Under the pieces are notes generated by a model. The model worked only from the letters and a program-made list of their open reading frames with translations. It was not told where the DNA came from and ran no database searches. The translations under genes and the position numbers were made by a program. A DNA stretch of 64,000 nucleotides from Clostridia bacterium. GTDB lineage: Bacteria; Bacillota; Clostridia; UMGS1810. The number at the start of each line of letters is the position of its first letter. Positions within the stretch are counted from its first letter, which is position 1. The stretch lies in contig JAFQBA010000100.1 in NCBI GenBank assembly GCA_017416845.1, positions 8,968 through 72,967 on the forward strand, written 5' to 3'. Shown in pieces: positions 17,205 through 32,397 of the stretch.

Positions 17205-17237
17205 TTAACAATAGTCGCACCGATCAAAAACCGACCA
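17205..17237. repeat. Short repeat pair (TTAACAATAGTC + CAAAAACCGACCA), left copy
   Basis: The 12-mer at 17205-17216 and the 13-mer at 17225-17237 recur exactly at 17770-17781 and 17741-17753, on the same strand but in swapped order. Confidence 0.6.
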
Positions 17238-17296
17238 AATAAATTGGAATAGATCCGTCTGGTTCGGTATCAAATGACCGTTTTTTGGACATGACA

Positions 17297-17329
17297 AAAG
17301 CCTTGCCGTTATTAAAACGACAAGGCTTT
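17297..17329 (-). terminator. Stem-loop directly following a 10-nt tRNA 3'-end-like sequence
   Basis: AAAGCCTTGCCGTT / ACGACAAGGCTTT hairpin. On the minus strand it follows CCTGCACCCA and is followed by TTTTG. The arms are homologous to the hairpin at 34563-34603. Confidence 0.5.
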
Positions 17330-17603: not shown

Positions 17604-17638
17604 AAAATTCCTCGGTCTTTTGACCAAGGAATTTTTTT
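17602..17638. terminator. Bidirectional rho-independent terminator
   Basis: AAAAAATTCCTCGGTC-TTTT-GACCAAGGAATTTTTTT, an A-run and T-run flanking an 11-bp stem. On the minus strand it lies immediately 3' of the tRNA fragment. Confidence 0.7.
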
Positions 17639-17683
17639 GGGTGCAGGGGCCGGATTTGAACCAACGACCTCCGGGTTATGAGC
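17638..17683 (-). pseudogene. Truncated initiator tRNA-Met (CAU) 3' half; probable att-site remnant
   Basis: The minus strand reads GCTCATAACCCGGAGGTCGTTGGTTCAAATCCGGCCCCTGCACCCA. This covers the anticodon loop CTCATAA, the CCC side of the initiator-type anticodon stem, the T-arm, an acceptor 3' strand ending in A72, and CCA. It is nearly identical to the 3' half of E. coli and B. subtilis tRNA-fMet as I remember them. The upstream 33 nt cannot form an acceptor or D-arm. Confidence 0.75.
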
Positions 17684-17740: not shown

Positions 17741-17781
17741 CAAAAACCGACCATAAAACCGACCAATCATTAACAATAGTC
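17741..17781. repeat. Short repeat pair, right copy, with an extra AAACCGACCA
   Basis: CAAAAACCGACCA at 17741-17753, AAACCGACCA again at 17756-17765, and TTAACAATAGTC at 17770-17781. These are possible arm-type integrase sites. Confidence 0.5.
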
Positions 17782-17932: not shown

Positions 17933-18703
17933 TTAATTTATAGTACCATTCTTTATATGATATGCTATATTGTGTTTTTCGCAGAAATCAACAACCACGT
18001 TAGCCGTTTTGTTAAAGAACTCTTTATGTCTCTTATATTCCGAAGCTTTTTTATTGTAATGAATTCTCCCAAAAATTATTTTATCACAAAAACTAACAGC
18101 CTCAAGGATATCGTTAATATTTTGATCTATAAAATTCGGAGTTGGATATGGTTCTATGCTTACCCAGGTCTTGCATCCAAATTCATGTAAAGTTCTTAAT
18201 GCCTGAATCCTTTCATCAAAGGGTACCGAATTAGGCTCATACTCTTTTCTGAATTCTTCATTTAAAGAAATTAAAGTTATCCCATATTCGTTATCTGAAG
18301 ATAATTTCATAAGTTCTTCAGGTAAAATACCTTTAGTTAAAACTGTACACTTTATCCCTGCAGTGTTAAGCTTTTGGATGGCCTTGATGCTCATCTTAGA
18401 TATCTCATCATATCCATACATAAACGGATCCGTAGTGAAACATAGATGAACTGATTTGATTTTATCTTTCAGTTTAGGAATTTCTTTATCTAACAGCTCT
18501 AATGTATTTGAAACCAAATATGGTTCTATCCAATCCTCATAGCAACCGACTTGACCAAAACGTTTTTTTTGCAAATATGCATAACATGGAAATTTACAGC
18601 CATGTGCACAACCCAAAACATGGTTCATAGTATAATCCCCATATTCTACACCTGTAACATAAAGCATGGTCTTTCGCTCTATATATCCTTTGACCTGTTT
18701 CAC
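17933..18703 (-). CDS. Radical-SAM/SPL-like protein with atypical CX3CX3C motif (three-Cys-motif partner of TcmP)
   Basis: GTG start 7 nt after GGAGGTG, overlapping the TcmP stop (GTGA). Motif GCAHGCKFPCYAY. Downstream pattern resembles SplB-type TIM-barrel radical SAM proteins (LCFTTDPF, TVLTKG, YEPNSVPFDERIQALRTLHEFGC, SIEPYP). Confidence 0.55.
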   Translation of the reverse strand: MKQVKGYIERKTMLYVTGVEYGDYTMNHVLGCAHGCKFPCYAYLQKKRFGQVGCYEDWIEPYLVSNTLELLDKEIPKLKDKIKSVHLCFTTDPFMYGYDEISKMSIKAIQKLNTAGIKCTVLTKGILPEELMKLSSDNEYGITLISLNEEFRKEYEPNSVPFDERIQALRTLHEFGCKTWVSIEPYPTPNFIDQNINDILEAVSFCDKIIFGRIHYNKKASEYKRHKEFFNKTANVVVDFCEKHNIAYHIKNGTIN

Positions 18704-19950
18704 GCTTTACACCTCCTCAATGTAATGGTCTTATCTTTACATTCTTCCCAAAATGCAGATTTTTTTCCGTTTTTTCTATGAGCAGGATTTCGCAAAATTT
18801 GCAGTTCTTTTTTTTGTTCTAAAATAGTTAAACTATCATATATCATTTTAAAATCACAGATTAGTCCGTACTCATTAACAAAAGATGCTATATATTCCGT
18901 TAATCCAATTTCGTTATAACCTTTAAGATGCTGCGAAACCTTTTCGGCAATTTCTTCTATTGTTATCAAATCACCTTCCCCAGTAGAAGAACATCCTGTT
19001 AGCATATCAAAAATTGTAAATTGTCCATCTTGTTGAATATTTAAAAACAATTCTTCTTTTCGCTTCTGCATATTTTGAGCCATCAAAAAGCAACCATCCC
19101 TATGGTTACAAACATGCATCATTCGATATTTAGGTCTTTGTCCTTCCTTTAAGCGAATAGGCAAATCAAGAACATATGAAAAAAATTTTTTTAATTGTTG
19201 TTTATACCTTTCAGATAATATTTGTTCAGCTTTATAACCATCAAACTTACCAGCTTTATAATCTTTTACAATATCTTTCCAATAATCTCCACCAGCTATT
19301 GAATTTAACAATACTTCTGATTGAGCATTTGTGTCAACAGTCATAGGGTCATATTCAATCAAATCTTCCAATGAATTCAAAGCTGCATCATTACTATAAT
19401 TAACCCTCATAACTCTGCATGCATCGCGGAAAAAGCCAAAAGAATTGAAGTTTATTAACATTTCAAATGAATTAAACCCTAATGTTTTGAACTTTTTGAA
19501 CAATTCAAAATTTAGTGCTTTTATTCCGTATGGATCTATGTAAAGAAAAACATTATAATTATCTTTATCTGAAAGGCACTTTAAAATTGTTTCTTCATAT
19601 TTACCGGATATTATATTGGCATCTCCATAATTAGAAATGAAGGTGGCAACGTTTTGTTGCAATTCGACGGCATGATCTGACTCAATAAAACAAGGTTGTA
19701 TAGCACCATTCTTAAAGGAAATATTAGCTCTTTTTAAGCAATCTTCTCTAACTTTTAATGCAATCAGAGGTGAACCATCATTGCCATCTTCAAATTTTCC
19801 TTTTCCAGCAAAACAATCTACATAATATATGGGTTTCTTTGTCATAAGAACTTTTTGAAAATATGGTGATAAATAGCAACCCAAAAGTTTATCTTTTATA
19901 ACAGACCAATCGTTTTTCTCTTTAAAGAAATCAGAATTATTTTTTGACAT
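18700..19950 (-). CDS. tcmP: Three-Cys-motif partner protein TcmP-like (methyltransferase-fold N-terminus)
   Basis: The N-terminal pattern W..IK...L..YL..Y......K.IYYVDCFAGKGKF.DG..GSPLIAL matches my recollection of the TcmP family, with a D.FAG.G SAM-motif-I-like element. TAGGAG RBS. Translationally coupled to the CX3CX3C gene. Confidence 0.55.
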   Translation of the reverse strand: MSKNNSDFFKEKNDWSVIKDKLLGCYLSPYFQKVLMTKKPIYYVDCFAGKGKFEDGNDGSPLIALKVREDCLKRANISFKNGAIQPCFIESDHAVELQQNVATFISNYGDANIISGKYEETILKCLSDKDNYNVFLYIDPYGIKALNFELFKKFKTLGFNSFEMLINFNSFGFFRDACRVMRVNYSNDAALNSLEDLIEYDPMTVDTNAQSEVLLNSIAGGDYWKDIVKDYKAGKFDGYKAEQILSERYKQQLKKFFSYVLDLPIRLKEGQRPKYRMMHVCNHRDGCFLMAQNMQKRKEELFLNIQQDGQFTIFDMLTGCSSTGEGDLITIEEIAEKVSQHLKGYNEIGLTEYIASFVNEYGLICDFKMIYDSLTILEQKKELQILRNPAHRKNGKKSAFWEECKDKTITLRRCKA

Positions 19951-20259
19951 TAATAATCAACTCCTACATTAATTTATCTCAATATCATCAATCACTAAAC
20001 ACCTTATCAATGACATCACAAATATTACAATAGATATGATACAACAGCGAAGACTAAATTTATTCAAATTAAAGTTTACCATTTCCATCAATAATTTTCA
20101 TCATCACAGAAATTTACGATTTCAATAACTAATCAGCAAGATACTTCATCGTATCTGATTAAATCACCTTCAAGTTCCGTAAGCGATTCGTCAAAATCGG
20201 CATATTTATAAACTCGCTTATATTATGTGCCAACTTGATTTTTCTGTTTTATCAGGTTA

Positions 20260-20772
20260 TTATAGTTTAATCTTTCCTGCATCGTTTGATATATCTTGAT
20301 ATGGTTCCCCAGGCTGCTCCGACCAAAATTTATTTATATCAAATTCATGCTCCTCTAACTTACTATGTAAATTTGTGATACGGATAAGATCACTTTTATA
20401 GTCTCTTGCTGAGCGACTATTTAGTAATTCTGTAATTTGTCTTATGTTACAGCTTCTTACTAATTCACCTTCTAAGTTTGGTACCTGCGGGATCGTAATT
20501 ACACTAGATATATAAGAACAATCTTTTAATTTTTTCATATTTCTTTTTAAGATTTCTACATTGTTTGTATCAGTATCAAATATTAATACAACAATAGTTC
20601 CCTGCTTTAAAGGTCTTAGGTGCGCATCTTTAATCAGTTCTTGTAACACATTTAGTTTTTGTAATTTTCCCGGAGCTATAACTTTCATAGTATTTTTAAG
20701 GGTGTCAACAAGTTTTTTCTCATCTTCCCCTTCAACATAATACTGAACTATTTGTTTCTTCATTAGTGTCAC
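20260..20772 (-). CDS. Small Toprim-like protein (RloB/DUF4276-type), partner of the upstream ATPase
   Basis: Conserved acidic pattern YYVEGEDEKKLV then VLIFDTDTNN (E ... DxD, Toprim-like). The start overlaps the ATPase stop (GTGA; an alternative ATG lies 9 nt downstream). Confidence 0.45.
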   Translation of the reverse strand: MTLMKKQIVQYYVEGEDEKKLVDTLKNTMKVIAPGKLQKLNVLQELIKDAHLRPLKQGTIVVLIFDTDTNNVEILKRNMKKLKDCSYISSVITIPQVPNLEGELVRSCNIRQITELLNSRSARDYKSDLIRITNLHSKLEEHEFDINKFWSEQPGEPYQDISNDAGKIKL

Positions 20773-21893
20773 CCCTCATCATCTGTATTAATAATATCAT
20801 AAATAAGCTCCAGAGCAGGTGATACTGAAAATGCATCATTTTCTACAGCATTTCTTAAGGAATCAGTATTACGCTTCAGATAAGAAGAAGCATTTACAGG
20901 TTTGATTGTAGTCTCAGGATCTGTAACATCTTTACGTAAAAATGTAAATGTGTGCTTAGGAAGATTCATATCTAAAACATCTGTATTGTGAGTTGTAAAG
21001 AACAGTTGATCGTTTTCGCCTACATATTCAATCATCACAGATAAGATAGCTTTTTCTATGTCACTATGAATATATGAAAATTTTTCATCACAGTAATAAA
21101 AATGATAGTCTTTCTGAATCAAAGATGAAAGCATTGTAGACACTTCAATCCCAGCCTTCGTTCCACTAGAAAGAAAATCTGTAGTTAATAAGTCTCCATC
21201 CTGAATTACAATGGACTTATTTTGGAGATGTATTACGTATGCGTTATCAACATCTTGTGATATCTTAACTTCCTTGATAGATGGATCCAAAGCTTTTAAT
21301 ACATTTTCAAGAACTTGACGAAATTTCTCATCTTTATTTGGCAATTTTAATTTATTCGGGTGATCTTCCGGATACTGAAAAAACCACGATAATTCTTCAA
21401 TCTTTTCAAGCTCGTCTACATAGTTTTCTGACGAATAAAAATCTTTGTTTTCTATTCTTTCTACGCAAGATTCGTAGCTGTCTTTGACTCTAATATTTTC
21501 CTGAATTATCTGTACTTTAATATGACTAGATTGGTAATTTCCATCTGCACATGGTTCTACTACACATATTACCCTATAAAAAACTTGACTGTTTGAAGCA
21601 AGGTCTAAGGTAAATGAAGCTTCCTTGCTAGTATCACAAATTACCGAGGTGATATAACTGTAATTTTTTTGGCTGATGAAATTAAAAATTTTCATCAAAA
21701 TTCGTCCAAAAGTCGTTTTCCCGGATGCATTAGCACCAAAAAACACATTGACTTTTTTGTATCTGAAATTACTGCGTCCTGCTAAATGTTCATCCTGTAT
21801 ATATGATCCTACGATCTTTTTAGGATACGTTAAATTCATTTGAAAGTTTCTAAATGCATAAAAATTATCTAAACACACATTCAATACAACCAT
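20769..21893 (-). CDS. AAA_21/ABC-type ATPase of a split OLD/AbiL/PARIS-like pair
   Basis: ORF 20769..21929. Start moved to ATG at 21893, after AAGGAGG. Walker A is GANASGKTT. Walker B / D-loop-like element is YYCDEKFSYIH. The C-terminal FFTTHNTDVL is typical of this ATPase group. Confidence 0.6.
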   Translation of the reverse strand: MVVLNVCLDNFYAFRNFQMNLTYPKKIVGSYIQDEHLAGRSNFRYKKVNVFFGANASGKTTFGRILMKIFNFISQKNYSYITSVICDTSKEASFTLDLASNSQVFYRVICVVEPCADGNYQSSHIKVQIIQENIRVKDSYESCVERIENKDFYSSENYVDELEKIEELSWFFQYPEDHPNKLKLPNKDEKFRQVLENVLKALDPSIKEVKISQDVDNAYVIHLQNKSIVIQDGDLLTTDFLSSGTKAGIEVSTMLSSLIQKDYHFYYCDEKFSYIHSDIEKAILSVMIEYVGENDQLFFTTHNTDVLDMNLPKHTFTFLRKDVTDPETTIKPVNASSYLKRNTDSLRNAVENDAFSVSPALELIYDIINTDDEG

Positions 21894-22261
21894 TTTGTGC
21901 CTCCTTCGATTTATTTCTTCGTGTTTCACGAAATAATCTCCTTTCTGTTATTCTACATTAAATATTTAAAAAATGCAATACTATATTTAAATTTATTTCC
22001 ATTTTTCTTTAATTTATATATATAATATCCCTTTAGGTATTCATTTATTATTAATAATGATAATAAATATGATTATTTGATGTCATGCATTCTTCGTTTT
22101 AGTATATACAATTAAATTATACACTAAAACTAAAAATATAACTCCTATAAATTTAACAAAAACGAACGCATCCCAATCACTTGTCACAGCTATATTTGAC
22201 CCATATTCCAGGTGAAAAACCAAGTAATATAGCCTAAAATTAATTTTTACAATTTAGTTAC

Positions 22262-22337: not shown

Positions 22338-23474
22338 TTACGCTCTATGCAGAACTATTGAATCAAGCTTTGCCGCAGCTTCCTCATCCATCTCAGGTAA
22401 TACATGTGTGTAAGTATTAAGGGTTATATTTACATCTGAGTGTCCTAATCTTTGCTGAACCACTCTTGGGTTAACGCCTGCCTGGATAAGTGCCGTTGCA
22501 TTACTATGACGAAGATCGTGCAAACGTATTCTTGGCAATCCCCTACTTTCAAGGAATCTTGTCCATTTTCTTGTCATTGAATCGGGTTTAAGGGGAGAAC
22601 CGTCTTCCTGACGTATAACAAATCCAAGGTTCTGAAATCCAACTCCATAAGACAACATATCTTTTGTATATTCTTTCTTGGCAAGTTCCAATTCCTTCAT
22701 AACATCATCACCAAGATGGATGTCACGTATACCCGACTCTGTTTTGGGTGCTTTAATGATGAATCCTTTTTCGCCACGCACCATATTTCTTCTTACTTTG
22801 AGGATATTCTTTTTAAAATCAATATCCTCCCAACGCAGTGCAAGAAGTTCTCCTCGTCTTAAGCCTACAGTTAATAATATTAAAATTGGCAAATACATAT
22901 CTGTACCTTTGGCTTCGTCAAGCAAGCTATACATCATTTTCGGGGAGTATACTTCCGCTTTGTATCTCTTTCTTTTTGGAAGAGATACGCCTTCACATGG
23001 ATTGTAAGGAATGAGTCGTATCTTTACAGCAAGCTTCATCGCCGCATTGACATTATTGAATGTATCCCTAATATTTTTGGGAGATAAGCCTTTAGCAATC
23101 ATTTCATTAACCATCCCTTGAACATGTTCAGCTCTTAATGCCTGTATCAGAATATCACCAATGGCGGGTTTAATGTAACATCTTATCTTACTCTTATACC
23201 CTACTCTTGTTGTTTCTTCTACATTGGAAAGGTATGAATCAACCCACTCATCCATCCATTGACCTATAGTCTTGTCTGTTCTCTTTGTAGTTATTCCTTG
23301 TTCCATTTCTGTAATCATTTTGTGCATTACAGACTTAGCTTCTTTCTTACTACCTTTAACCGTCTTGTATGCTCTGATACGTTTGCCGGTTAATTCATCA
23401 TAGCCACCCTCTACAGTAACTTGATAACTAATACCCGATTTTGTTCTCTTCTCTCTTATGTTACCTGTTGCCAT
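22338..23474 (-). CDS. int: Tyrosine-type site-specific integrase with N-terminal arm-binding domain
   Basis: C-terminal catalytic pattern HDLRHSNATALIQAGVNPRVVQQRLGHSDVNITLNTYTH. R in LRRGELLAL. N-terminal KSGISYQVTVEGGYD..TGKRIR resembles an AP2-like arm-binding domain. AAAGGAG RBS. Confidence 0.9.
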   Translation of the reverse strand: MATGNIREKRTKSGISYQVTVEGGYDELTGKRIRAYKTVKGSKKEAKSVMHKMITEMEQGITTKRTDKTIGQWMDEWVDSYLSNVEETTRVGYKSKIRCYIKPAIGDILIQALRAEHVQGMVNEMIAKGLSPKNIRDTFNNVNAAMKLAVKIRLIPYNPCEGVSLPKRKRYKAEVYSPKMMYSLLDEAKGTDMYLPILILLTVGLRRGELLALRWEDIDFKKNILKVRRNMVRGEKGFIIKAPKTESGIRDIHLGDDVMKELELAKKEYTKDMLSYGVGFQNLGFVIRQEDGSPLKPDSMTRKWTRFLESRGLPRIRLHDLRHSNATALIQAGVNPRVVQQRLGHSDVNITLNTYTHVLPEMDEEAAAKLDSIVLHRA

Positions 23475-23479
23475 ATTTT

Positions 23480-23698
23480 CTATCTCCTTTCTACTATTTG
23501 ATATACAGGTCTTTGTTTCAACTTTTTCTTTACCGATTTTGACGGATACAGCACTTCGTTAAGCTTGCTTTCAAGAACTCTGTACTGCCTACCTACGGTA
23601 ACATACTCAACCTTGTCCTTAACAAAGTTTAAAGCAGTATCATAGGATACCTTTAGTAGTTCTGCTACTTCACTTACTGTTAAATATCTATCTTTCAT
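23480..23698 (-). CDS. Excisionase-family helix-turn-helix DNA-binding protein
   Basis: 72 aa, YLTVSEVAELLKVSYDTALNFVK...GRQYRV, immediately upstream of int. GAGGAG RBS. Confidence 0.65.
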   Translation of the reverse strand: MKDRYLTVSEVAELLKVSYDTALNFVKDKVEYVTVGRQYRVLESKLNEVLYPSKSVKKKLKQRPVYQIVERR

Positions 23699-23761
23699 AA
23701 TTCATACTCCTCTCTCAAAATTATAATATATATCTGAATTTTAGTGGTTTTCGAAATTGGT

Positions 23762-23828
23762 GTTACCTGCCACTAAATACCTTTCTCTTTTGAAAAACAA
23801 GGAAAAAGATAATCAGGTGGCAGGTGAC
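23762..23828. repeat. 67-bp inverted-repeat module, copy 1
   Basis: GTTACCTGCCAC at 23762-73 and GTGGCAGGTGAC at 23817-28, arm starts 55 bp apart. It lies 21 nt downstream of the stop of ORF 23849..24499 and 64 nt upstream of the xis-like start. Confidence 0.7.
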
Positions 23829-23848
23829 AAATATTTACAAATTAAAAA

Positions 23849-24499
23849 TTACCAATCATAACTGTAGTCATATTCTTCATCTTCACAAGAATTATTTTTT
23901 GTCTCTTCTTGGAATAATTCCTTTTTATCGATCATTTCTTTTCTTTTCATATTAGCGCAGTAATCAATATACTCTTCCCACGTTATGGGAGTACGTTTAC
24001 AGAATCCTCCAATCTTGCTATTCTCATAATTGAGAGCAACATACTCAGTAGCACCTACAATTTCTTTGACTTTAAATTTTTCCTTACTAAGAAAAACTTT
24101 CATTGAATAAGTAAGATTTTCATAAAACGTTGAACCTATAGGATATACCTGAATTATATGATAAAATCTTACATCGTCGTCAGATATTTTTCCTATAGCA
24201 AGATGATAACAATCCGGATAGGGAATAATCTCATAGTAAACTTTGACGACATCTTTTCCGAATGTTCTTCTTTCATACTCTGCATGTATAATTTCAGAAA
24301 AATACCAGCCGGAAGGTACGTCCTCATAGTTAGGAAATTTATATCCATGGAGTCCATTGCTTTCCATTTCATAGTCCTGAGAAATATCTTTTGTTCTGTC
24401 TACCGTCGTTTTACGAGTTGAGCAAATCAGCTTACCATCTTGATAAGTTGCTCTGTTCGTATAACAAACATTAGTATTTTTTGCATTATTTGTTAACAT
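23849..24499 (-). CDS. Hypothetical protein, paralogue family A (possibly DUF669/phage SSB-like) with acidic C-terminal tail
   Basis: AAGGAGG RBS. Shares VP.G.Y.S.... G.D...V.YEI and Q.YP.GS.F..N...M and G.TE.V.L.Y.N..IGG...R.P with ORF 24651..25283. The tail reads CEDEEYDYSYDW. Confidence 0.6.
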   Translation of the reverse strand: MLTNNAKNTNVCYTNRATYQDGKLICSTRKTTVDRTKDISQDYEMESNGLHGYKFPNYEDVPSGWYFSEIIHAEYERRTFGKDVVKVYYEIIPYPDCYHLAIGKISDDDVRFYHIIQVYPIGSTFYENLTYSMKVFLSKEKFKVKEIVGATEYVALNYENSKIGGFCKRTPITWEEYIDYCANMKRKEMIDKKELFQEETKNNSCEDEEYDYSYDW

Positions 24500-24569
24500 A
24501 ATATCATCCTCCTTTTTGAGCTTTCAGTTTATAATCAACACTTTCAATGGATTCCTGTTTTTATGTTTT

Positions 24570-24632
24570 CCGCCTGTCACAAAATATGTATTTCATTGAC
24601 ATATATTCAAAGCAAAAATTCGTGACAGGCGG
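24570..24632. repeat. Inverted-repeat module, copy 2
   Basis: CCGCCTGTCAC at 24570-80 and GTGACAGGCGG at 24622-32 are perfect complements, 52 bp start to start. It lies 19 nt downstream of the stop of ORF 24651..25283. Confidence 0.7.
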
Positions 24633-24650
24633 CATAAATATCATTCCGTT

Positions 24651-25283
24651 TTATTCGTCATCTTCTTCAAGAAAATCATCAAACTCATCATCTTCATCAA
24701 TTGTAATTTTATTTTCAAGCAAGTCCTTTCCTTTGTATTCATGCTTGATATCATTACCATCAGCTTCTTCCTGATTCTCTAGCAGATTAACCTTTGTCAG
24801 TTTCGGTTTTCTGAAAATCCTATCATACTTTTCAGGTTCTAAAGGATGACGTCCAATATAACCGCCAATAGTGGCGTTACCGTAATCTAATGTAACATGC
24901 TCTGTAACGCCAATGGTATCATCAAGATCCATCTCATCAATACCAACCGCTTCAGCCATTGCTTCACAATAATTGTCAAAGAACGATGTCCCTAAAGGGT
25001 AGATCTGACGTATATTATATGTAGGAATATTTGTGTTTGAAGAAAGCTTGCCATTAAGTATCTTTTCACAAATAGAGGCCTCTTTGATTTCATAACAAAC
25101 TTCAATTGCGTCATTACCTGACTTGGTTATAGTTTCTTTTGCAGATACAACTCTTGATATATAATCTCCGGCAGGCACCTGATTTGGGTATGGGAGATTA
25201 AAATTGTTTGCTTTTTTTCTGGTAAGTTTAAACGAAGTTTTGGAGCCTAAATAATTTCTGGTTTTTACATTTTTGGAATTCAT
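24651..25283 (-). CDS. Hypothetical protein, paralogue family A, with long acidic C-terminal tail
   Basis: AAGGAGG RBS. Paralogous to 23849..24499. The tail reads IDEDDEFDDFLEEDDE. Confidence 0.6.
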   Translation of the reverse strand: MNSKNVKTRNYLGSKTSFKLTRKKANNFNLPYPNQVPAGDYISRVVSAKETITKSGNDAIEVCYEIKEASICEKILNGKLSSNTNIPTYNIRQIYPLGTSFFDNYCEAMAEAVGIDEMDLDDTIGVTEHVTLDYGNATIGGYIGRHPLEPEKYDRIFRKPKLTKVNLLENQEEADGNDIKHEYKGKDLLENKITIDEDDEFDDFLEEDDE

Positions 25284-25319
25284 AAAAATTCCTCCTTTTC
25301 TTTAAATATTTTTTATTTT

Positions 25320-25386
25320 GTCACCTGCCACGAATCATATTTTTCGCTTGTTATACAAGTAAAAACTGATACTTGTGGCAGGTGCA
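25320..25386. repeat. Inverted-repeat module, copy 3
   Basis: GTCACCTGCCAC at 25320-31 and GTGGCAGGTGCA at 25375-86, 55-bp spacing. It lies 5 nt downstream of the stop of ORF 25391..25600. Confidence 0.7.
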
Positions 25387-25390
25387 AGTT

Positions 25391-25600
25391 TTAATTTTTG
25401 TTTTTTATAATTTTAATATAGAATACATCTATAGCTTCTTCATTATTTTTTGTAGTTGTTTCTTGTCCCTTTATAACTTCTGATATGTAGTAATCTGGTG
25501 GTACAACATCTATAGAGGGATATTTGTAATTGAAATAATCAAAAGAAAATCCTCTTAGAGTAAAGCCTACGTTTTTTGTACTTTCATTTGTTGTATTCAT
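25391..25600 (-). CDS. Truncated paralogue of family A (N-terminal segment only)
   Basis: 69 aa with AAGGAGG RBS. YPSIDVVPPDYYISEVIKGQETTTKNNEEAIDVFY aligns with the N-terminal core of the two longer paralogues. Confidence 0.5.
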   Translation of the reverse strand: MNTTNESTKNVGFTLRGFSFDYFNYKYPSIDVVPPDYYISEVIKGQETTTKNNEEAIDVFYIKIIKNKN

Positions 25601-25642
25601 TTTTGAATACCTCCTTTTACATTTTTATAGTTGATATTTTGT

Positions 25643-25709
25643 GTCACCTGTCGCAAGGTATGATTTTCCCATGACAAACTGGAGGAAAGATGCGAGTGCG
25701 ACAGGCGAC
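25643..25709. repeat. Inverted-repeat module, copy 4
   Basis: GTCACCTGTCGC at 25643-54 and GCGACAGGCGAC at 25698-709, 55-bp spacing. It lies 12 nt downstream of the stop of ORF 25721..27142. Confidence 0.7.
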
Positions 25710-25720: not shown

Positions 25721-27142
25721 CTATTTTTTTATAACTGAAATTTTAGTGCCTTTCGATCCCGTGGGATCAATGTTGACACGATATCCTGAGTTTAGAATCT
25801 TGTTGAATTCTTTATCAAGTTTTTGGCTGAAGTGAGCTGCTGAGCCGGGAAGTAAAGATTTGTCACCAGAAAAATTATCAAATACCTCGTTGTAAAATTT
25901 AGTGGAGTACATCTCGATTTTTTGGCAAGAAAATTTTTTCATATACTCTTTTACAGCAGTAACAACAGGAGAACTCTCACGTGCTATTTTCAGCTGTTCT
26001 TGATTTTTGTTATATATTTCACGAAATTTTTCTTCGGAAATATCAAGTGCCCTAGCAATAGCTAGCATTTCAATGAACGCGTCGGTCATTCTGGGGAGAT
26101 TTTCTTTACTTACATTGTTTATTTCATTCAGTGCACGCGACAGAGTGTTGAAAATCGAACCTAAGATTTCCGGCAACGCTTTTTCAAACTCTACCCACAT
26201 CTCTTTTTCGGATTTTAACGCCGTAGAATCTAGCTTTTTCAAGTGCATCAATATCATCCTTTCTGCGATATCATCACGTTCGGGGTAGTAGCTGATGCCG
26301 TTTAAAACCAGCGTATTGTGTAGTGTGCAGACATCGATGTCGCAGTTGGTGTACAGCGAGCGTTTAACAACAGATGTACCAGTTACTGCTCCGCAAAATA
26401 GATCCGATACATCGTTAGAAACGGAAGCATGGCTAAGATTATCAAAGCAACATAGGTGGGTGCTATTCAGAAGGACACATAGATCACTTTTTTTGTCAGG
26501 TATTGTTGTTACGCTAAACTTGCAGGGGTCCACAATTCTTTTGATAATTTTCGAAAGCGTTGTCTTTCCACTGCCCCTGTCTGCAAGCAACCAAAGGATA
26601 AAGTGACTACCATGCAGGAAGGCCTGGATTACCCACACGACGAGCAGAATGTACGAATCACCAAAAATGTTTATAAAACCTTGAAGAAGATTTAGGGGTG
26701 ATTTTTTTGTTTTCACAGGCTCAACTTGTGGTTGGCTTGCTTTTGATGTGACAAATTTTCTTTTTTTAGGGACTATATCCCAGCCTTCTTGTGTGATGAC
26801 TACGGATTTTTGGTCATCACTTTGCAAGTCATATTCTATGAAGTCTGTTAAATTACCTGATATTCTGACATTTACGTCAATATCCTGGAATTTTTTATAG
26901 TACAACAGGAGACATCTAACCGCTTTGATACTTTCATTAGGATCTAAAGCTTCTTTATATTCATCAATATAATCGAACGATTTTACAAGCAAAAAGCTCT
27001 TGAAACCTTCAGAATCCAAAGATTCAAAGGTTAATTCACCGTTGCAGTTTTCGAATTCTGCATAAAACATATCAGTGTCGTTGATGTCGCGATAAAACAC
27101 AACATCTTTAATAACATCAAAAAGAACTTCTGAAACTTTCAT
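25721..27142 (-). CDS. P-loop NTPase, probable SF3/VirE-type replication helicase of the element
   Basis: 473 aa with AAAGGAG RBS. Walker A is ADRGSGKTT. Walker-B-like element is HLCCFDN. Size and position next to int/xis fit primase-helicase-type replication proteins. The family was not confirmed. Confidence 0.45.
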   Translation of the reverse strand: MKVSEVLFDVIKDVVFYRDINDTDMFYAEFENCNGELTFESLDSEGFKSFLLVKSFDYIDEYKEALDPNESIKAVRCLLLYYKKFQDIDVNVRISGNLTDFIEYDLQSDDQKSVVITQEGWDIVPKKRKFVTSKASQPQVEPVKTKKSPLNLLQGFINIFGDSYILLVVWVIQAFLHGSHFILWLLADRGSGKTTLSKIIKRIVDPCKFSVTTIPDKKSDLCVLLNSTHLCCFDNLSHASVSNDVSDLFCGAVTGTSVVKRSLYTNCDIDVCTLHNTLVLNGISYYPERDDIAERMILMHLKKLDSTALKSEKEMWVEFEKALPEILGSIFNTLSRALNEINNVSKENLPRMTDAFIEMLAIARALDISEEKFREIYNKNQEQLKIARESSPVVTAVKEYMKKFSCQKIEMYSTKFYNEVFDNFSGDKSLLPGSAAHFSQKLDKEFNKILNSGYRVNIDPTGSKGTKISVIKK

Positions 27143-28781: not shown

Positions 28782-28990
28782 AACAATCCTCCTTGAAAAT
28801 AATATAGCTTCCTAAAAAGATTTTTAACATCACTTGTCGCAGATAGGTATTTGATCGTGTATCCATCATTACTTAAATAAATGGTGTAAATTTCGCCATT
28901 TTGATCACGAAAAAACTCGCAGTGATTTGCAACTACGTTAAAAATGACATCAGAAGTTCTTTTTGTCACGTTGATTGGTTTTAATTTCAT
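28778..28990 (-). CDS. Hypothetical small protein
   Basis: 70 aa with AAAGGA upstream. Translationally coupled to the downstream ORF. Confidence 0.4.
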   Translation of the reverse strand: MKLKPINVTKRTSDVIFNVVANHCEFFRDQNGEIYTIYLSNDGYTIKYLSATSDVKNLFRKLYYFQGGLL

Positions 28991-29552
28991 ATTGTACCAT
29001 CCTTTTTATTTAGTTTTCAATGTACTCAAGGTGCAATTGTTACACCTCTATGTTTCAAATATTAATGAATATTTTGGAAATCCCATAAAAAATTGCATCA
29101 AAAAAAGACTATGCAAACGCATAATTAAAACAAACTATTCATTTTGTTACAACAATTCTTTGGGTTGAGGATTTTGATACTTTTGATAAAAATGATACTG
29201 TACTCTTCCTTATTGAGAGCCCGTGGTAACCAACCACTTTTGAAAATTAAAAAAATAAATTAAACTGTTCTAGTGTCTTAGAAATAATAAAAATAAAGTT
29301 CCTGTAAAATAAGTCATAAAAATCATCATTCAATACTCAGTTGCATCATGCATAATTAAAATTTGGCGCCATACATTCTGTAACATCAATTGAATATATT
29401 TATATTATATCATATCACTTTCAAAATATCAAGAATTTTTTTATTTTGAGGTTCCATTTTGAGTTTCCATAAGTTTACGTAGAGTTAAAAAAGGGAAAAA
29501 ACATCGTCATTATCAATGCTACTGTCGAATCCAGAATAGTTTACACCGAAGT

Positions 29553-29618
29553 GTCACCTGTCACCAGGTGCCGTTTTCCCTTGTATAGAGCCAAAAACCA
29601 CAATTTTGGGCAGGTGAC
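29553..29618. repeat. Inverted-repeat module, copy 5 (inside an ~880-bp non-coding region)
   Basis: GTCACCTGTCAC at 29553-64 and GGGCAGGTGAC at 29608-18, 55-bp spacing. The left arm is part of the local palindrome CACCTGTCACCAGGTG. Confidence 0.65.
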
Positions 29619-29874
29619 AAATTTTAACATTTCATATGACGATACTAGGAATTCAATATTATACGCGTGATATCAGACAAATCAACGACGCCATGAGCCT
29701 AACACCTCATATACGATATCAGATGTGTCGATACTGTCGATATAGATGCATAATAAAAAAATAACACCCTTACAAATATGTAAGAAGTGTTTATACTACG
29801 GAACATAGGTTTTCCCTATGTTTTTGTATGCTCCCACACGAACCCATGTGGGAGCATTTGTTTTCATGCGTCTT

Positions 29875-30399
29875 TCATTCTGGTATAGTGCATTTTTCCA
29901 GAAGCCATTGACTCCGGATGCTTGGTGTAAGCGGATGAAGTCCATTTCTTTCCCCATCAGACAGAACATACAGCTTGTCTTTATATTCCTTAATCGTATT
30001 CAATACCTCTATAGCTCTTTCCTCGATTCTTGCATTGGTATTTGCAGCCTTACCCCATGCAAGTATTGTTTTTGATGTAGATTCAACTGATTTCAAAATA
30101 TATGAATCATTTTCTTCACAGTTCAATTCATCATCACTTTCACTGAATCTTAGCTTGTTTGTCAGCTTTGAATACAAGTTCAATACTTCAACTCCACCAT
30201 ATTCACCAAGGTTTGCTACGTTATTCACAACAAGATATGTAGTAGTATCGGTAATGATATTATCTGCCTGACTGGGATTAAGCATTATTACAGATATCAG
30301 TGGTTTATCCTTGTCCCATACTCTTTTCCACAAATACCTGTGTGTTCTGTCATCATTAAATATTGATTCGCATTTTATAGTGTCTTTTTCAGTTATCAT
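29875..30399 (-). CDS. DUF1643 domain-containing protein
   Basis: RTHRYLWKRVWDKDKPLISVIMLNPSQAD matches the R.Y.L.R.W ... MLNPS.AD signature I associate with DUF1643. GGAGGAAAA RBS. Confidence 0.65.
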   Translation of the reverse strand: MITEKDTIKCESIFNDDRTHRYLWKRVWDKDKPLISVIMLNPSQADNIITDTTTYLVVNNVANLGEYGGVEVLNLYSKLTNKLRFSESDDELNCEENDSYILKSVESTSKTILAWGKAANTNARIEERAIEVLNTIKEYKDKLYVLSDGERNGLHPLTPSIRSQWLLEKCTIPE

Positions 30400-30568
30400 C
30401 GTTTTCCTCCATAATAGTAAATTTTACATCTTCAAAGTTATCTGCACTCAAAACAATATCGCTGTTGTTGTACATTTGCTTTGCCATACCTATAGCTTCA
30501 TTTTCATTATCAGCTTCTATATCTATAGTAGCTTTCAATATTTCGGATATATCAACCTTGAATTTCAT
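30389..30568 (-). CDS. DpnD/PcfM-like small protein
   Basis: ORF 30389..30595. The ATG at 30568 lies 7 nt after AAAGGAG. MKFKVDISEILKATIDIEADNENEAIGMAKQMYNNSDIVLSADNFEDVKF resembles the DpnD/PcfM family of conjugative elements. Confidence 0.45.
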   Translation of the reverse strand: MKFKVDISEILKATIDIEADNENEAIGMAKQMYNNSDIVLSADNFEDVKFTIMEENDDN

Positions 30569-30905
30569 CTGTAATCTCCTTTGGCGTATCGGCAAGTGCA
30601 GTAAATATAACTATGCCATAGTCATCGCTTATCAAATACAACGAACAGCAATACTCGGGCTCCGAATCTATATGGTCCACATACTCCGGAACATATTCTT
30701 CATAATCAAACCACGACAGAATCTCTGTATCCTTTGTTCCGGGTTCCGCATACAAAACATAACCGCCATTGTTTTTGTCAATATCTCTGTCACTACCATA
30801 ATTATCATCCAGAATTTCAAGATTTTCTGATATCCTTTCACGTATTTTTTCGTCCATAGATGGCAGCTTGTTTAACTCCGATAAAGTACCTATTTTATAT
30901 ACCAT
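30552..30905 (-). CDS. Hypothetical acidic protein
   Basis: ORF 30552..30989. The ATG at 30905 (MVYKIG) lies 7 nt after GGAGGTG. Confidence 0.5.
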   Translation of the reverse strand: MVYKIGTLSELNKLPSMDEKIRERISENLEILDDNYGSDRDIDKNNGGYVLYAEPGTKDTEILSWFDYEEYVPEYVDHIDSEPEYCCSLYLISDDYGIVIFTALADTPKEITDEIQG

Positions 30906-30909
30906 ACTC

Positions 30910-31305
30910 TTACACCTCCCAATCCGTAAAAATATTAAACGACATTGCCTTATCAACATCATTCGAAGTAAGTTCTTCCGGAGTAGCAAAGTAATTTGAG
31001 TAGTATTCTATGAACTTCTCAGGCAATGATGTCAAATTACCATCATCATCCTCGCCAACAACATAAAAAACACCGCAAATCACATCGTTATAAAACCTTC
31101 TGTTCGGCTCGAGATTTATAAGCTTGCCTTCCTCGTTGCAAAGAATACAAACATTATCATCAATACCGATAATCTCAATATACCCTACACTTTCAGCACC
31201 AATTGATACCGCTTCCTGTAACGAATGCAGCTCATTTTTGATAGTAGTGACAGCAGGTGCTTTGCCCGGCTCTACCATTAAGACTTTGATATCTTTTTCT
31301 TTCAT
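30910..31305 (-). CDS. DUF3846 domain-containing protein
   Basis: ORF 30910..31353. ATG at 31305 after GGGAGG. IKVLMVEPGKAP...LQEAV...CNEEGKL...GVFYVVG matches the DUF3846 pattern as I remember it. Confidence 0.6.
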   Translation of the reverse strand: MKEKDIKVLMVEPGKAPAVTTIKNELHSLQEAVSIGAESVGYIEIIGIDDNVCILCNEEGKLINLEPNRRFYNDVICGVFYVVGEDDDGNLTSLPEKFIEYYSNYFATPEELTSNDVDKAMSFNIFTDWEV

Positions 31306-31392
31306 AATATATAACCTCCCAAAAAATAAAATGTCCATAGTAGCCTTTGCCACTATGGATTACATTCATAATATATATTTATATCTTGTAAC

Positions 31393-31422
31393 TTTACATA
31401 TTGCCTTTTCGGACACTAAAAT
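31393..31422 (+). promoter_or_regulatory. Candidate sigma-A promoter of the plus-strand module
   Basis: TTTACA (31393-98), 18-nt spacer, TAAAAT (31417-22), 77 nt upstream of the ATG at 31499, in the divergent intergenic region. Confidence 0.4.
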
Positions 31423-31498
31423 ACTAACAAATAATTAAAGGGATATTTCTGTGTTCCTTAACATATTAAAATAAACAAATGAATAGAGGTGAATCAAA

Positions 31499-31846
31499 AT
31501 GCCTAAGCCGCGGCGCAAATATAAACTGGCTGACATCAACTACAGAAATGTAGACCTGAGAATGTATTCAAAACTTATCATAGATAATATTAACAGCACA
31601 GTACCGGGTAAGAATCCCCAAGTCTTTGAATCATATTTCTCAACAGATTTACTTACTCAAAGTGAATCGGTATTAATCGGAAGAGCCTTAGCTAAGCTCG
31701 AAGAATTAAAGCCTTACGGTAAAACAATTACAATATTCAGACTGTTTGACGGTAAAGCCTATGCCGGTGAAGAATCAAATGTTCCCATCAAAAAGAAAGA
31801 AACGGTTATAAAAGCAACAACCATCAAAGGAGGTAGAGTACGATAG
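31499..31846 (+). CDS. Hypothetical protein
   Basis: 115 aa with AGAGGTG RBS. Confidence 0.5.
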   Translation: MPKPRRKYKLADINYRNVDLRMYSKLIIDNINSTVPGKNPQVFESYFSTDLLTQSESVLIGRALAKLEELKPYGKTITIFRLFDGKAYAGEESNVPIKKKETVIKATTIKGGRVR

Positions 31847-32040
31847 AAAAGTTTACAAGAAAATACTTAAATATTGATGATATTCAAAAAGAATACCTGC
31901 CGGTGAGCAAAAAGAGAATAAGATGTTTTGTGAAAAAGTATCTTAACTATAATATTATCGGCGGCAGAATTTTTGTTGAAAGACAAGCCTTGGAAGATAT
32001 GCTGTCAGATCCCGACAGAGACTCCTTTCCACTGACATAA
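31843..32040 (+). CDS. Excisionase/MerR-like HTH small protein with no canonical start (ATA at 31843?)
   Basis: Open frame from 31837 to TAA at 32038-40, encoding ..KYLNIDDIQKEYLPVSKKRIRCFVKKYLNYNIIGGRIFVERQALEDML... AAGGAGG at 31827-33 sits 9 nt before the in-frame ATA. The first in-frame canonical start is a GTG at 31903, which would cut into the HTH. Confidence 0.35.
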   Translation: MEKFTRKYLNIDDIQKEYLPVSKKRIRCFVKKYLNYNIIGGRIFVERQALEDMLSDPDRDSFPLT

Positions 32041-32067
32041 TTGACGTTACATAAGGAGGTAATAACA

Positions 32068-32397
32068 GTGGAATATATACTTATAAACGGATTGATAGTA
32101 GAACCCAACGAATGTCCCTATGATATAACTTTGATAAACGATAAAGATTTTATAGAGTTTCACTTACTTGAATTCCCTGATGATGAGTGTAGTACAAAAA
32201 TAATAAAAATAGCAGATGATGCCTGCATCATTTACAACAGCCTTGCCAAAACCCTTAACAGAATAGTATACGGCAAAATCATATACGGTAATTTCTATAT
32301 AGTTGGTGTTGACAAAAATAAAACGTTGGTATCGTTATCAGATAACGCCAAGATAATGTACACTCAAATGTTCGGATACGGAATGTTGCTTGTATAA
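32068..32397 (+). CDS. Divergent DUF3846-like protein
   Basis: GTG at 32068, 8 nt after AAGGAGG. IVEPNECPYDITL ... GNFYIVG ... SLS resembles the protein encoded at 30910..31305. Confidence 0.45.
   Translation: MEYILINGLIVEPNECPYDITLINDKDFIEFHLLEFPDDECSTKIIKIADDACIIYNSLAKTLNRIVYGKIIYGNFYIVGVDKNKTLVSLSDNAKIMYTQMFGYGMLLV

Follow-up and report, generated by a model that had tools for sequence, protein, structure and literature searches.

What are the five inverted-repeat modules that punctuate a gene array next to an integrase gene on a Clostridia contig (JAFQBA010000100.1), and what do they do? The window was the whole stretch of 64,000 nucleotides analysed from this contig. A sequence-only reading of it had described five modules, each with a 12-nt arm, a spacer and the reverse-complement arm, and had offered two explanations, paired operators or attC-like cassette boundaries. 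All five modules were located (Table 1), M2 with edges slightly outside those first drawn (24570–24632). Their regularity had been judged too strong for chance, and no shuffle reproduced the module architecture. The motif GTCACCTGYCAC, allowing ≤2 mismatches, matched 19 times against 4.25 ± 2.1 in shuffled sequence (0 of 100 shuffles reached 19), and the paired pattern CCTGYCRC-N38-48-GYGRCAGG matched 4 times against 0.00. Arm starts had been placed 55 nt apart in four copies and 52 nt in the other; 55 nt was measured in M1, M3 and M4 and ~52–53 nt in M2, but M5 measured 54 nt. On the gene strand (minus), M1–M4 lie 4–20 nt past the upstream stop codon and 36–70 nt ahead of the next ATG (5–21 and 37–71 as first counted). 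The shared spacer core was real and reads TTTTnCCTTG-N5-CAAGGnAAAA on the gene strand, T-rich/A-rich and itself palindromic. A covariance model built from 14 copies found no sixth module in the window. In M1, 2 + 2 inverted TGYCRC hexamers flank a 43-nt spacer; this copy follows the 216-aa SSB-like gene, 20 nt past the stop codon, with the xis promoter-like site directly downstream. M2 carries the variant arms CCGCCTGTCAC/GTGACAGGCGG, altered on both sides. M3 is 80–87 % identical to the module after rep in a related locus (L183), and M5, whose inner 5′ hexamer is degenerate, lies within an 880-nt non-coding stretch (28990–29875).

Table 1. Modules and neighbouring features of the island, in window coordinates (bit scores from the covariance model).
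Feature	Position	Strand	Details
Module M1, 'x' position	23762..23828	-	74.7 bits
Module M2	24569..24633	-	68.7 bits; separates 210-aa and 216-aa SSB-like genes
Module M3	25320..25386	-	76.7 bits; separates 69-aa chimeric ORF and 210-aa SSB-like gene
Module M4, 'p' position	25643..25709	-	73.3 bits; ~10 nt past rep stop codon
Module M5, 'd' position	29553..29618	-	59 bits; ~255 nt downstream of DUF1643 gene
rep, 473-aa orphan P-loop protein	25721..27142	-	model with pLDDT 87.9
210-aa SSB-like paralogue	24651..25283	-	OB-fold core, acidic C-terminal tail EDDEFDDFLEEDDE
216-aa SSB-like paralogue	23849..24499	-	30 % identical to 210-aa protein
69-aa ORF	25391..25600	-	SSB-like gene N-terminal fragment plus last codons of a rep gene
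xis, HTH_17 excisionase-type	23480..23698	-	
int, tyrosine recombinase	22338..23474	-	Arm-DNA-bind_4, SAM_3 and catalytic domains
att core	17637..17683	-	tRNA 3′ half, anticodon loop CTCATAA to CCA
Tandem AAAACCGACCA(T) x2	17743..17765	.	adjoins att; likely integrase arm-type sites
xis-int promoter-like site	23725..23754	-	TCGAAA-18-TATATT

Each 12-nt arm was resolved into a tandem of two direct hexamers, TGYCRC-C-TGYCRC, which had been overlooked before. A module thus consists of 2 + 2 inverted hexamers, spaced by 7 bp within each arm and flanking a 41–44-bp spacer. Across 39 modules from >15 islands, all four hexamers had a common profile (T, G, Y, C, R, C), with identical degeneracy at positions 3 and 5; the C/G linker between hexamers and the outer ends TGYCRCC ... 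GGYGRCA were invariant in 39/39 copies. Spacer length was 43 nt in 27 modules, 42 in 10, 41 in 1 and 44 in 1, and spacer sequence drifts. GC content was 0.36 in spacers and 0.62 in arms, the DNA around the modules in the window being at 0.31–0.36. Tandem protein-binding sites are favoured, because a plain stem gives no reason for the 7-nt internal periodicity.

The modules are the mark of a rare, undescribed family of small tRNA-integrating islands in gut Clostridia MAGs, for which >20 loci were read. The island backbone comprises DUF3846/DpnD-PcfM/DUF1643 genes, the gene for the 473-aa orphan protein (Rep), 0–3 variable genes, xis and int; defence-type cargo stands beside int (AAA_15/21 and DUF3226 here, Abi_2 or AIPR in other islands). 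Modules were confined to this family: all outside copies lay in same-family islands, and neither the rest of the 64-kb window nor 18 loci harbouring distant homologues of int yielded one. An identity as REP/BIME- or MITE-like dispersed repeats was rejected, as no copy lay outside the island in the window and those found elsewhere were in islands of this family. Each island carries 1–5 complete modules, scattered over 0.3–6 kb with genes in between. The end of the 473-aa gene was visible in 16 elements, and in 13 of them the first hexamer lay 3–10 nt past the stop codon; in L173 a weak copy overlaps the end of rep, and L034 and L180 have no module after rep. L181 and L182 show a compact form, with two complete modules 37 nt apart directly past rep and no gene between them. 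Modules distant from rep were found after DUF1643, beyond int (L176 and L180) and in a remnant without rep (L042). The copy after DUF1643 has a T-run behind it in L049 and L130, in the manner of an intrinsic terminator. In L179, modules are accompanied by just rep, an SSB-like gene, xis and int.

The metagenome pattern scan returned true copies (L074, L089, L130, L150 and L166) among the matches listed; its pattern permitted CGC in the arms and was swamped by GC-rich chance matches. Five matches in IMG/VR were rejected as unrelated iteron-like palindromes, located in replicons that are GC-rich or otherwise different, and a protein scan of IMG/VR found no relatives of Rep and Int relatives of 23–29 % identity, none with modules. 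Palindromes with similar arms in Bacteroidaceae were also set aside as unrelated, since their length and context differ (AAA_14/DUF4143, AMP-binding and others); within that palindrome family, a VapE-like helicase gene lies beside the L039 copy only. Two viral contigs (L002/L005) carry, 85 nt past a Prim-Pol/PriCT_2 gene, at least 7 CACCTGTCACC repeats, which form two inverted sets with an AT-rich core between them. They offer an analogy to the modules, and weak evidence, since they were found via a DNA pattern. Rep showed no homology beyond the Walker A motif to helicase or primase genes beside such look-alike palindromes (L002 and L039).

Rep carries no Pfam domain and had 36 relatives at E ≤ 1e-5 in a word-indexed search of a 5.8-billion-protein collection. 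Foldseek matched its model to D5/SF3 primase-helicases, including the SaPI5 primase-helicase 7ola (TMq 0.50, TMt 0.54), to AsfvPrimPol, NrS-1 and MPXV E5, and to phage helicases at TM 0.72–0.76. Rep is accordingly predicted from its modelled fold to be an SF3/D5-like self-loading helicase-initiator; the predicted H-E-H-H-H-E-E pattern of its last 80 residues may be read as winged-helix-like. The variable genes belong throughout to a single family, OB-fold SSB-like proteins with acidic tails. The 210-aa member matched DUF669 weakly and a PHROG SSB, as well as the structures of PrgE, PriB and SSBs. The 69-aa ORF is a scar left by illegitimate recombination. Conservation within the family is highest for Xis and Int (65–90 % identical), and the att core lies downstream of int in all related islands. 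The xis promoter-like site is kept in all of these islands, both in position (~62 nt from module to xis ATG) and in sequence (TTGAAA/CCGAAA ... TATATATTAT). By inspection, the TATATATTAT box showed no XerC-arm similarity; it was rejected as a dif/Xer-like site and read as a -10 region. Integrase arm sites were likewise rejected as an identity for the modules, with separate AAAACCGACCA repeats adjoining att and the modules >1 kb away from it.

The explanation that we favour, tentatively and a little short of calling it probable, is that the island's own replication initiator binds the modules as iteron-type sites and that at least the copy abutting rep serves as the origin from which the island replicates. 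M4 is the best candidate for the origin proper. Module anatomy, conservation and position were observed directly and the folds of both proteins were predicted; binding, melting and firing are what we infer from them. Besides the hexamer structure, the near-constant spacer length, the place directly past rep and the predicted fold of Rep, the following points this way: the modules match the published grammar of SaPI origins; their neighbours form a replication set, a helicase with OB-fold SSB-like proteins bearing acidic tails; and modules occur only in the island family, where L181 and L182 show the compact two-module form. Xis and Int would excise the island first. Rep would then recognise the hexamers through its winged-helix-like C-terminal domain and load itself as two rings, one per arm, with melting of the spacer, and the SSB-like proteins encoded between the modules would coat the unwound strands. 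The additional modules, which follow SSB-like genes and DUF1643 and precede xis, may serve as auxiliary Rep-binding sets, or may have been carried along when a unit of module plus SSB-like gene was duplicated or inserted into an ancestral two-module origin.

Several features count against an origin. Complete modules are scattered among genes, whereas known SaPI-type origins are single clusters, and some copies are found far from rep or, in L042, without it. The A+T content of the spacer is no higher than that of the DNA around it, and its centre is palindromic. Arm sequence stays unchanged while Rep diverges to 39 % identity, although SaPI Reps and iterons co-vary. Position 3 of the outer hexamer (10/75) covaries between arms (T-A 17, C-G 10; Fisher p = 6e-5), which independent binding sites do not predict. 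On the gene strand, arm mismatches were G·T in 41 cases and A·C in 13, and that strand folds as RNA 3.4 kcal/mol better than the other (p = 0.006); both observations hint at a constraint at the level of single strands or transcripts. Spacers of unrelated sequence (L130d and L150p) fold nonetheless. The covariation, the strand bias and the folding of divergent spacers speak for the main rival, which we consider unlikely: that the modules are RNA hairpins in a polycistronic rep/SSB-like mRNA, acting as RNase III-family processing sites or stability barriers and so uncoupling helicase levels from those of the SSB-like protein. Where a module follows rep or separates SSB-like genes, just 23–47 nt (RBS included) remain before the next ATG and no conserved promoter lies inside, so that these modules must be co-transcribed with their neighbours. 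Predicted energies of the RNA hairpins (-18 to -44 kcal/mol) and the T-run past the DUF1643 copy in L049 and L130 fit this account, as does ACCU/AGGU, the invariant centre of each arm, which could be a Mini-III-type site; in Firmicutes, ACC^U is the preferred dsRNA cleavage site of Mini-III RNases (PMC4357697, PMC5141509). That match is nevertheless a post-hoc 4-mer coincidence (about 2 %), and in Faecalibacterium, a relative of the likely hosts, UGCA is preferred over ACCU (PMC5141509). A stem does not account for arms made of two identically degenerate hexamers joined by an invariant linker. Of the three variable stem positions, two showed no covariation (17/68, p = 1; 19/66, p = 0.43), C·A mismatches at 17/68 were not depleted, and the strand bias could be mutational. 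Spacer folding was weak on average (mean z -1.4), equal between strands (p = 0.35) and missing from several copies, and the copy before xis stands upstream of that gene's own promoter-like site. Rfam 15 gave no match at gathering score in the window and, over the modules, just chance miRNA-like hairpins (E > 1); nothing was found for the modules or the att region in gathering or E-value mode. A bolder reading, in which the modules do more than act as origin repeats, is harder to credit, namely that they are hairpin units bounding mobile or re-orderable SSB-like genes of a Firmicutes island (cassettes independent of IntI) or dual-use sequences, helicase-loading as DNA and cleaved as RNA, in which a cut, for example at ACC^U by Mini-III, could set the ratio of helicase to SSB. 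If either form were true, genes would be embedded inside a distributed replication origin.

Paired operators bracketing each promoter had been the first proposal. The paired protein-binding arms survive, sharpened to hexamers, but the likeliest ligand is Rep, whose gene the first reading had not singled out, and not a regulator such as the Xis-like HTH protein, and the grammar of the module fits a replication origin instead of promoter bracketing. As had been noted, no conserved -35/-10 pair lies inside the modules: candidate pairs in M1–M3 are not conserved in M4, M5 or homologues and were rejected. Mimicry of SD or anti-SD sequences by the arms was also rejected, there being no start codon at a suitable distance. 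Control of read-through or of the xis promoter by an island regulator (the HTH_17 Xis, the second HTH_17, a Mor-like or a 115-aa protein) is distinctly unlikely, less so than the bolder reading above but more so than RNA processing. In its favour, the arms are inverted, conserved in sequence and fixed in spacing, as protein-binding sites are; the last module always precedes, by 8–10 nt, the conserved -35-like box in the promoter-like site of xis; the conservation of Xis and Int matches the invariant arms; and modules are retained beside xis-int in L042. Most modules, however, have no promoter within reach, the L179 copies have no neighbours but rep, an SSB-like gene, xis and int, the tightest positional rule is a place directly past the rep stop codon and not proximity to a promoter, and the island's divergent regulatory region (31353–31499) has no module. 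Recombination is very improbable as the role of the modules, whether as attC-like sites or as PeSL-like hot spots for gain, loss and reordering of SSB-like gene units. Cassette behaviour was looked for in relatives: number (0–3 genes between rep and xis, mostly one per module) and order do vary, and orthologous units are ordered differently in the window and L183, but all units belong to one SSB-like family and a breakpoint falls inside a gene. The point at which L177 and L178 become homologous again coincides with the 5′ edge of the last module, and the 69-aa ORF ends 4 nt ahead of a module; yet this chimera joins mid-gene to the 3′ end of rep and not module to module, the closest pair (L185 and the window, 98.5 % identical) breaks 76 nt past a module, and L183 modules are not clean 5′/3′ chimeras of those in the window. 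The attC proposal itself is not borne out: the modules have no RYYYAAC/GTTRRRY core, Int is of phage/ICE type (Arm-DNA-bind_4, Phage_int_SAM_3, Phage_integrase) and not of IntI type, and a hairpin, if formed, would be expected on the gene strand, opposite to attC. Given the minimal homology that RecA needs, arms of 12–13 bp are too short for efficient homologous exchange. Shuffling through conserved intergenic motifs has a precedent in the PeSLs of T4-like phages (PMC2839356). Least probable of all is a role as Frpo/ssi-type hairpin promoters or priming sites that would serve the island on entering a cell or replicating as ssDNA. The modules do fold as DNA hairpins (z -1.8 to -7.7), and the island has genes of leading-region type (DpnD/PcfM, DUF1643, DUF3846 and SSB-like). 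Repeated ssi/Frpo hairpins lie before ssb, psiB and ardA in F and ColIb-P9. Against this, the stem is imperfect, with ~30 base pairs, and offers no -35/-10 pair; pairing is better on the sense strand, whereas an ssDNA promoter needs the template strand; hexamer periodicity is left without an account; and the window island yielded no relaxase, oriT or T4SS gene.

Returning to iteron-type Rep-binding sites, the modules can be set beside several known systems. Like attC sites (57–141 nt), they are imperfect palindromes with conserved outer ends and a variable centre, placed after each of several short genes with a tyrosine recombinase gene nearby. Unlike attC, they have no R''/R' core; the integrase is an arm-binding enzyme acting on a tRNA att, the 'cassettes' are paralogous, breakpoints lie away from modules and strand polarity is opposite. 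For repeated intergenic palindromes beside an integrase, core sites and breakpoints should be checked before an integron-like reading is adopted. In P4 (ori and crr) and in iteron plasmids (inc), octamer or hexamer iterons bound by a D5-like initiator occur in at least two separate parts of the replicon. These are a precedent for iteron sets outside the origin proper, although P4 iterons form larger direct or inverted arrays and not intergenic 67-bp palindromes. PeSLs of T4-like phages are also short conserved intergenic stem-loop motifs in a variable gene region and possible patches for shuffling, but they carry a strong sigma-70 promoter and act as terminators (PMC2839356, PMC4122927); the modules have no conserved promoter, and no U-tract or T-run follows the copies in the window.

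Closer parallels are found in SCCmec and SaPI elements. In SCCmec, the repeats bound by Cch2, at a putative origin, lie between its own gene, which they closely follow, and the recombinase gene (PMC7581432). As in our islands, a helicase gene is followed by conserved inverted and direct repeats and then recombinase genes, the operon also encodes a small ssDNA-binding protein (pattern 1), and integration and excision are site-specific (PMC7581432). SCCmec differs in that direct and not inverted repeats are needed for Cch2 binding, and in having one site per element and serine recombinases (PMC7581432). The SaPI ori lies immediately downstream of rep and consists of penta- or hexanucleotide iterons, at least 2 per side and in opposite directions, around an AT-rich centre; the iterons are recognised by a C-terminal winged helix, and two hexamers load (PMC9371898). 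The island shares with SaPI/PICI elements a module right after the rep stop codon, at least 2 opposed hexanucleotide repeats per side, a centre richer in A+T than the repeats (though no richer than the DNA around the module), int and xis, and a non-DnaB SF3-like ring helicase initiator whose C-terminus is here predicted to be winged-helix-like. Rep had no detectable sequence similarity to SaPI Reps, the likeness being one of fold. It departs from PICIs in gene order and content, and neither a stl/str-like switch beside int nor packaging genes were found. Where SaPI/PICI origins have one cluster of 6–12 iterons, the islands have 1–5 compact 67-bp palindromes of exactly 2 + 2 hexamers, with a palindromic centre and SSB-like genes between units, and, unlike SaPI, with arms that are invariant across divergent Reps. 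The pattern TGYCRC-C-TGYCRC-N43-GYGRCA-G-GYGRCA or the covariance model R1 finds islands in metagenomes that annotation pipelines leave blank, and flags an undescribed family of small, presumably self-replicating, tRNA-integrating islands. If the modules are origins, they would provide a compact, four-hexamer minimal substrate of 67 bp for an SF3-type self-loading helicase and an unusual interleaving of complete origin units with diversifying SSB-like genes.

Five inverted-repeat modules (M1-M5) were found at the sites proposed by the sequence-only reading, and M1-M4 proved to be spaced as it had claimed, beginning 4-20 nt past one stop codon and ending 36-70 nt short of the next ATG (minus strand). 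All genes in the module region are oriented on the minus strand. Searching the window for GTCACCTGYCAC with up to 2 mismatches gave 19 matches vs 4.25 +/- 2.1 in shuffles, and the ten arms of the five modules made up 10 of the 19. The paired pattern CCTGYCRC-N38-48-GYGRCAGG was found 4 times in the window and 0 times in 100 shuffles. The modules share a spacer core, as had also been noticed, which reads TTTTnCCTTG-N5-CAAGGnAAAA and is palindromic in itself. No Rfam family was found for the modules, and a covariance model (14 copies) detected no copy in the window beyond the five.

Thirty-nine module copies were aligned on the gene strand. Each arm with its flanking T reads TGYCRC-C-TGYCRC; the base profile is the same for all four hexamers per module, varying only at Y (position 3) and R (position 5), and the linker C (G in the opposite arm) is invariant (39/39 copies). 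From the shared profile and invariant linker, the arms were defined as two direct, 7-bp-spaced hexamers per side, in opposite orientation. ACCU paired with AGGU forms the invariant arm centre in all modules (alignment columns 12-15 and 70-73). Spacers were 43 nt (n = 27), 42 nt (n = 10), 41 nt (n = 1) or 44 nt (n = 1) long, with a GC content of 0.36 vs 0.62 in the arms.

Scanning 185,579 species genomes for the module pattern returned 44 loci, several of which were discarded as chance matches or as a separate Bacteroidaceae palindrome family. Modules matching those of the window in arms, spacer length and spacer core were found on six Clostridia MAG contigs, and homologues of the window's genes were neighbours in every true module locus. 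Further islands were gathered via homologues of the 473-aa protein (Rep), a search that yielded just 36 relatives (E <= 1e-5), all lacking Pfam domains; loci L170-L185 stem from chicken and human gut cohorts. Modules were present in all islands gathered this way and in none of 18 loci with distant integrase homologues. The backbone order is DUF3846, sometimes a Mor-like gene, DpnD/PcfM, DUF1643, a variable stretch, the 473-aa gene, 0-3 variable genes, xis (HTH_17) and int (arm-binding, SAM-like and catalytic domains). The module is genuine, is conserved and had not been described before.

The Bacteroidaceae palindromes (54-58 nt, CCTGTCACC ... GGTGACAGG; MAG loci L008, L022, L032, L035, L038, L039 and L043) contain three tandem 7-mers in some cases. 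Two of them flank a VapE-like (D5-type) helicase gene in L039; elsewhere their neighbours are AAA_14/DUF4143 or unrelated genes. A look-alike palindrome in locus L063 (4191-4254) is probably an oriT, as a Mob_Pre relaxase gene follows 26 nt downstream; the search pattern also catches unrelated functional palindromes. In locus L042 (1076-1489, 1649-2887), an IS110-family transposase gene adjoins two modules, each with a decayed xis start behind it; these look like rep-less tandem remnants of earlier islands.

In 13 of 16 elements a module begins 3-10 nt past the stop codon of the 473-aa gene; in L173 a weak copy overlaps the gene end, and L034 and L180 have none directly after it. Most variable genes have one copy behind them, and the last module always precedes the xis ATG by ~62 nt, with a conserved promoter-like site (TTGAAA/CCGAAA ... 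TATATATTAT) shortly after it. In L181/L182, which lack a variable gene, two modules 37 nt apart directly follow the 473-aa gene. Extra copies were found after DUF1643 (M5, L049, L130, L183), beyond int (L176, L180) and before the 473-aa gene (L179). The 880-nt stretch around M5, in which ATGCATAATTAAAA occurs three times, is a candidate alternative regulatory region or origin.

The 473-aa protein, with K193 in its Walker A motif, was modelled at pLDDT 87.9. Its best PDB folds were D5/SF3 primase-helicases (AsfvPrimPol, NrS-1 C-terminal region, SaPI5 7ola, MPXV E5; TMq 0.50 and TMt 0.54 against 7ola), and among viral models it matched a phage 'ATP-binding protein' and a phage DNA helicase (TM 0.72-0.76). 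The last 80 residues are modelled in an H-E-H-H-H-E-E pattern, which may be read as a winged helix; TGTCACCTGTCAC is its candidate DNA partner. The 216-aa and 210-aa proteins are paralogues (30 % identical) with weak DUF669 and PHROG-SSB matches and a conserved acidic-aromatic tail (EDDEFDDFL). Their core (pLDDT about 90) best matched the OB-fold protein PrgE of pCF10 (E = 9e-4), followed by PriB and bacterial SSBs at weaker E-values. Nearly all variable genes between the 473-aa gene and xis in other islands match these two proteins by BLASTP, the exceptions encoding 189 aa (L166) and 232 aa (L180). Given the helicase and SSB-like matches, the region was interpreted as a replication set of initiator helicase and SSB-like proteins.

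Features of the island and its surroundings in the window
Feature	Position	Strand	Content
GC-richer segment	17219-17636		~420 nt, just outside att; 75 % identical to L042 479-900
AAAACCGACCA repeats	17743-17765; 17219-17239		tandem, beside att core
AAAAGCCTTGCCGTT repeat	17296-17310; 34560-34574		15-bp exact direct repeat
att core	17637-17683	-	3' half of tRNA, anticodon loop CTCATAA to CCA; conserved downstream of int in all related islands
Cargo between int and att	17933-21929	-	AAA_15/AAA_21 ATPase (386 aa), DUF3226 (170 aa), 416-aa protein, radical-SAM protein
int	22338-23474	-	
xis	23480-23698	-	
M1	23762-23828	-	
216-aa gene	23849-24499	-	SSB-like
M2	24569-24633	-	
210-aa gene	24651-25283	-	SSB-like
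M3	25320-25386	-	
69-aa ORF	25391-25600	-	chimera
M4	25643-25709	-	
473-aa gene (rep)	25721-27142	-	predicted helicase-initiator
A+T-rich stretch	28990-29875		880 nt, non-coding
Promoter-like site	29432-29404	-	near-consensus extended -10
ATTTTGAGGTTCC repeat	29443-29470		tandem, twice
M5	29553-29618	-	
Minus-strand set	29875-31353	-	DUF3846, 145-aa protein, DpnD/PcfM, DUF1643; diverges from plus-strand set
TTnCnTTCATAATATATA repeats	31296-31313; 31360-31377		second in switch region between diverging gene sets
Plus-strand set	31499-34517	+	115-aa protein, HTH_17 protein, DUF3846-like protein, amidoligase, class-II glutamine amidotransferase

The tRNA 3' half was assigned as the att core because it is conserved after int in every island. 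The AAAACCGACCA repeats look like integrase arm-type sites. Neither a complete tRNA nor the other end of the island was found in the window. The two AAAAGCCTTGCCGTT copies sit in terminator-like hairpins, one at either edge of the low-GC block; they may delimit the island or have arisen by chance (E = 0.04). In related islands the cargo position is taken by Abi_2, AIPR, DUF2971 or SMC-like ATPases, and with defence-type cargo thus recurring between int and att the site looks like a defence-gene hot spot. L178 has a second int 3' end and att copy behind its cargo genes (16795-17304 vs 13240-13600); at least there, the 'cargo' may be left over from a tandem integration. The GC-richer segment outside att had no Rfam match and may belong to an adjacent or tandem element or represent an unknown RNA.

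Most modules fold as long imperfect hairpins because the spacer core is itself palindromic (DNA folding z-scores -1.8 to -7.7, M5 weakest). Spacers alone folded modestly (mean z -1.4), similarly on both strands and in some copies not at all; those of L130 and L150, unrelated in sequence, nevertheless fold well. A role as mRNA hairpins is the main rival to an origin function, or a function added to it, and was considered unlikely. It draws on the outer hexamers, where position 3 covaries across arms (T-A 17 and C-G 10 vs T·G 3 and C·A 1; p = 6e-5), on the excess of G·T (41) over A·C (13) among gene-strand arm mismatches, and on RNA folding that is better for the sense strand by 3.4 kcal/mol (p = 0.006), the counts being phylogenetically non-independent. 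There is also no promoter room at modules after rep or between SSB-like genes, so these modules are transcribed and an RNA hairpin must form. As a post-hoc lead, Firmicutes Mini-III RNases prefer to cleave dsRNA at a site identical to the ACCU/AGGU core (PMC4357697, PMC5141509). Against this role, inner-hexamer positions show no covariation across arms (p = 1 and 0.43), and the strand asymmetry of arm mismatches possibly reflects mutational bias. A plain stem also gives no reason for hexamer periodicity, which, with its matching degeneracy, is therefore the strongest single argument for an origin.

That the modules are operators for another regulator was judged quite improbable. The sequence-only reading had also suggested cassette boundaries, and SSB-like units do vary in number and order between islands; between L177 and L178, one boundary of homology falls on the edge of a module. 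However, the units are all one family, the attC core and an IntI-type integrase are absent, and in the closest relative of the window's island, L185 (98.5 % identical), similarity is lost within a gene, 76 nt beyond M3. The 69-aa ORF joins an N-terminus homologous to the SSB-like family to the last codons of a rep gene (KIIKNKN*), which together with M3 match the rep 3' end and module of L183; the fusion therefore arose by illegitimate recombination, and not at a module. Recombination sites are thus very improbable, and single-strand signals were given just as little weight. A Frpo-type single-strand promoter was disfavoured by the short stem, the lack of a -35/-10 pair and better pairing on the sense strand. 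PeSLs (PMC2839356) offer a looser analogy, but they contain promoters and terminators; the modules have neither.

On IMG/VR contigs L002 (1283-1500) and L005, at least 7 CACCTGTCACC repeats are arranged as two inverted sets flanking an AT-rich core, 85 nt past the stop of a 736-aa Prim-Pol/PriCT_2 protein. This array looks like a textbook origin with almost the same repeat unit.

We tentatively favour, at slightly less than an even chance, a reading of the modules as iteron origins or putative Rep-binding units of integrative, self-replicating islands that form a new family. This reading leaves unexplained the dispersal of complete modules between genes (up to five per island), the outer-hexamer covariation and sense-strand G·T excess, the folding of the unrelated L130/L150 spacers despite modest spacer-only folding, and the promoterless gaps with their transcribed RNA hairpins. 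It is based on the module being the sole conserved repeated non-coding motif of these islands and on its fit to the origin grammar of SaPI and SCCmec, the spacer being A+T-rich relative to the arms but no more so than the surrounding DNA (GC 0.31-0.36). The SaPI ori lies directly downstream of rep, with at least 2 iterons per side of an AT-rich region, in opposite directions; the iterons are penta- or hexanucleotides recognised by the Rep C-terminal winged helix, and two hexamers probably load, one per side (PMC9371898). The nearest homologue of SaPI5 Rep is SCCmec Cch2, which binds repeats lying immediately past its own gene and ahead of the recombinase gene (PMC7581432). On the origin reading, the module would be a device of a known kind, though its modular, dispersed form is unusual.
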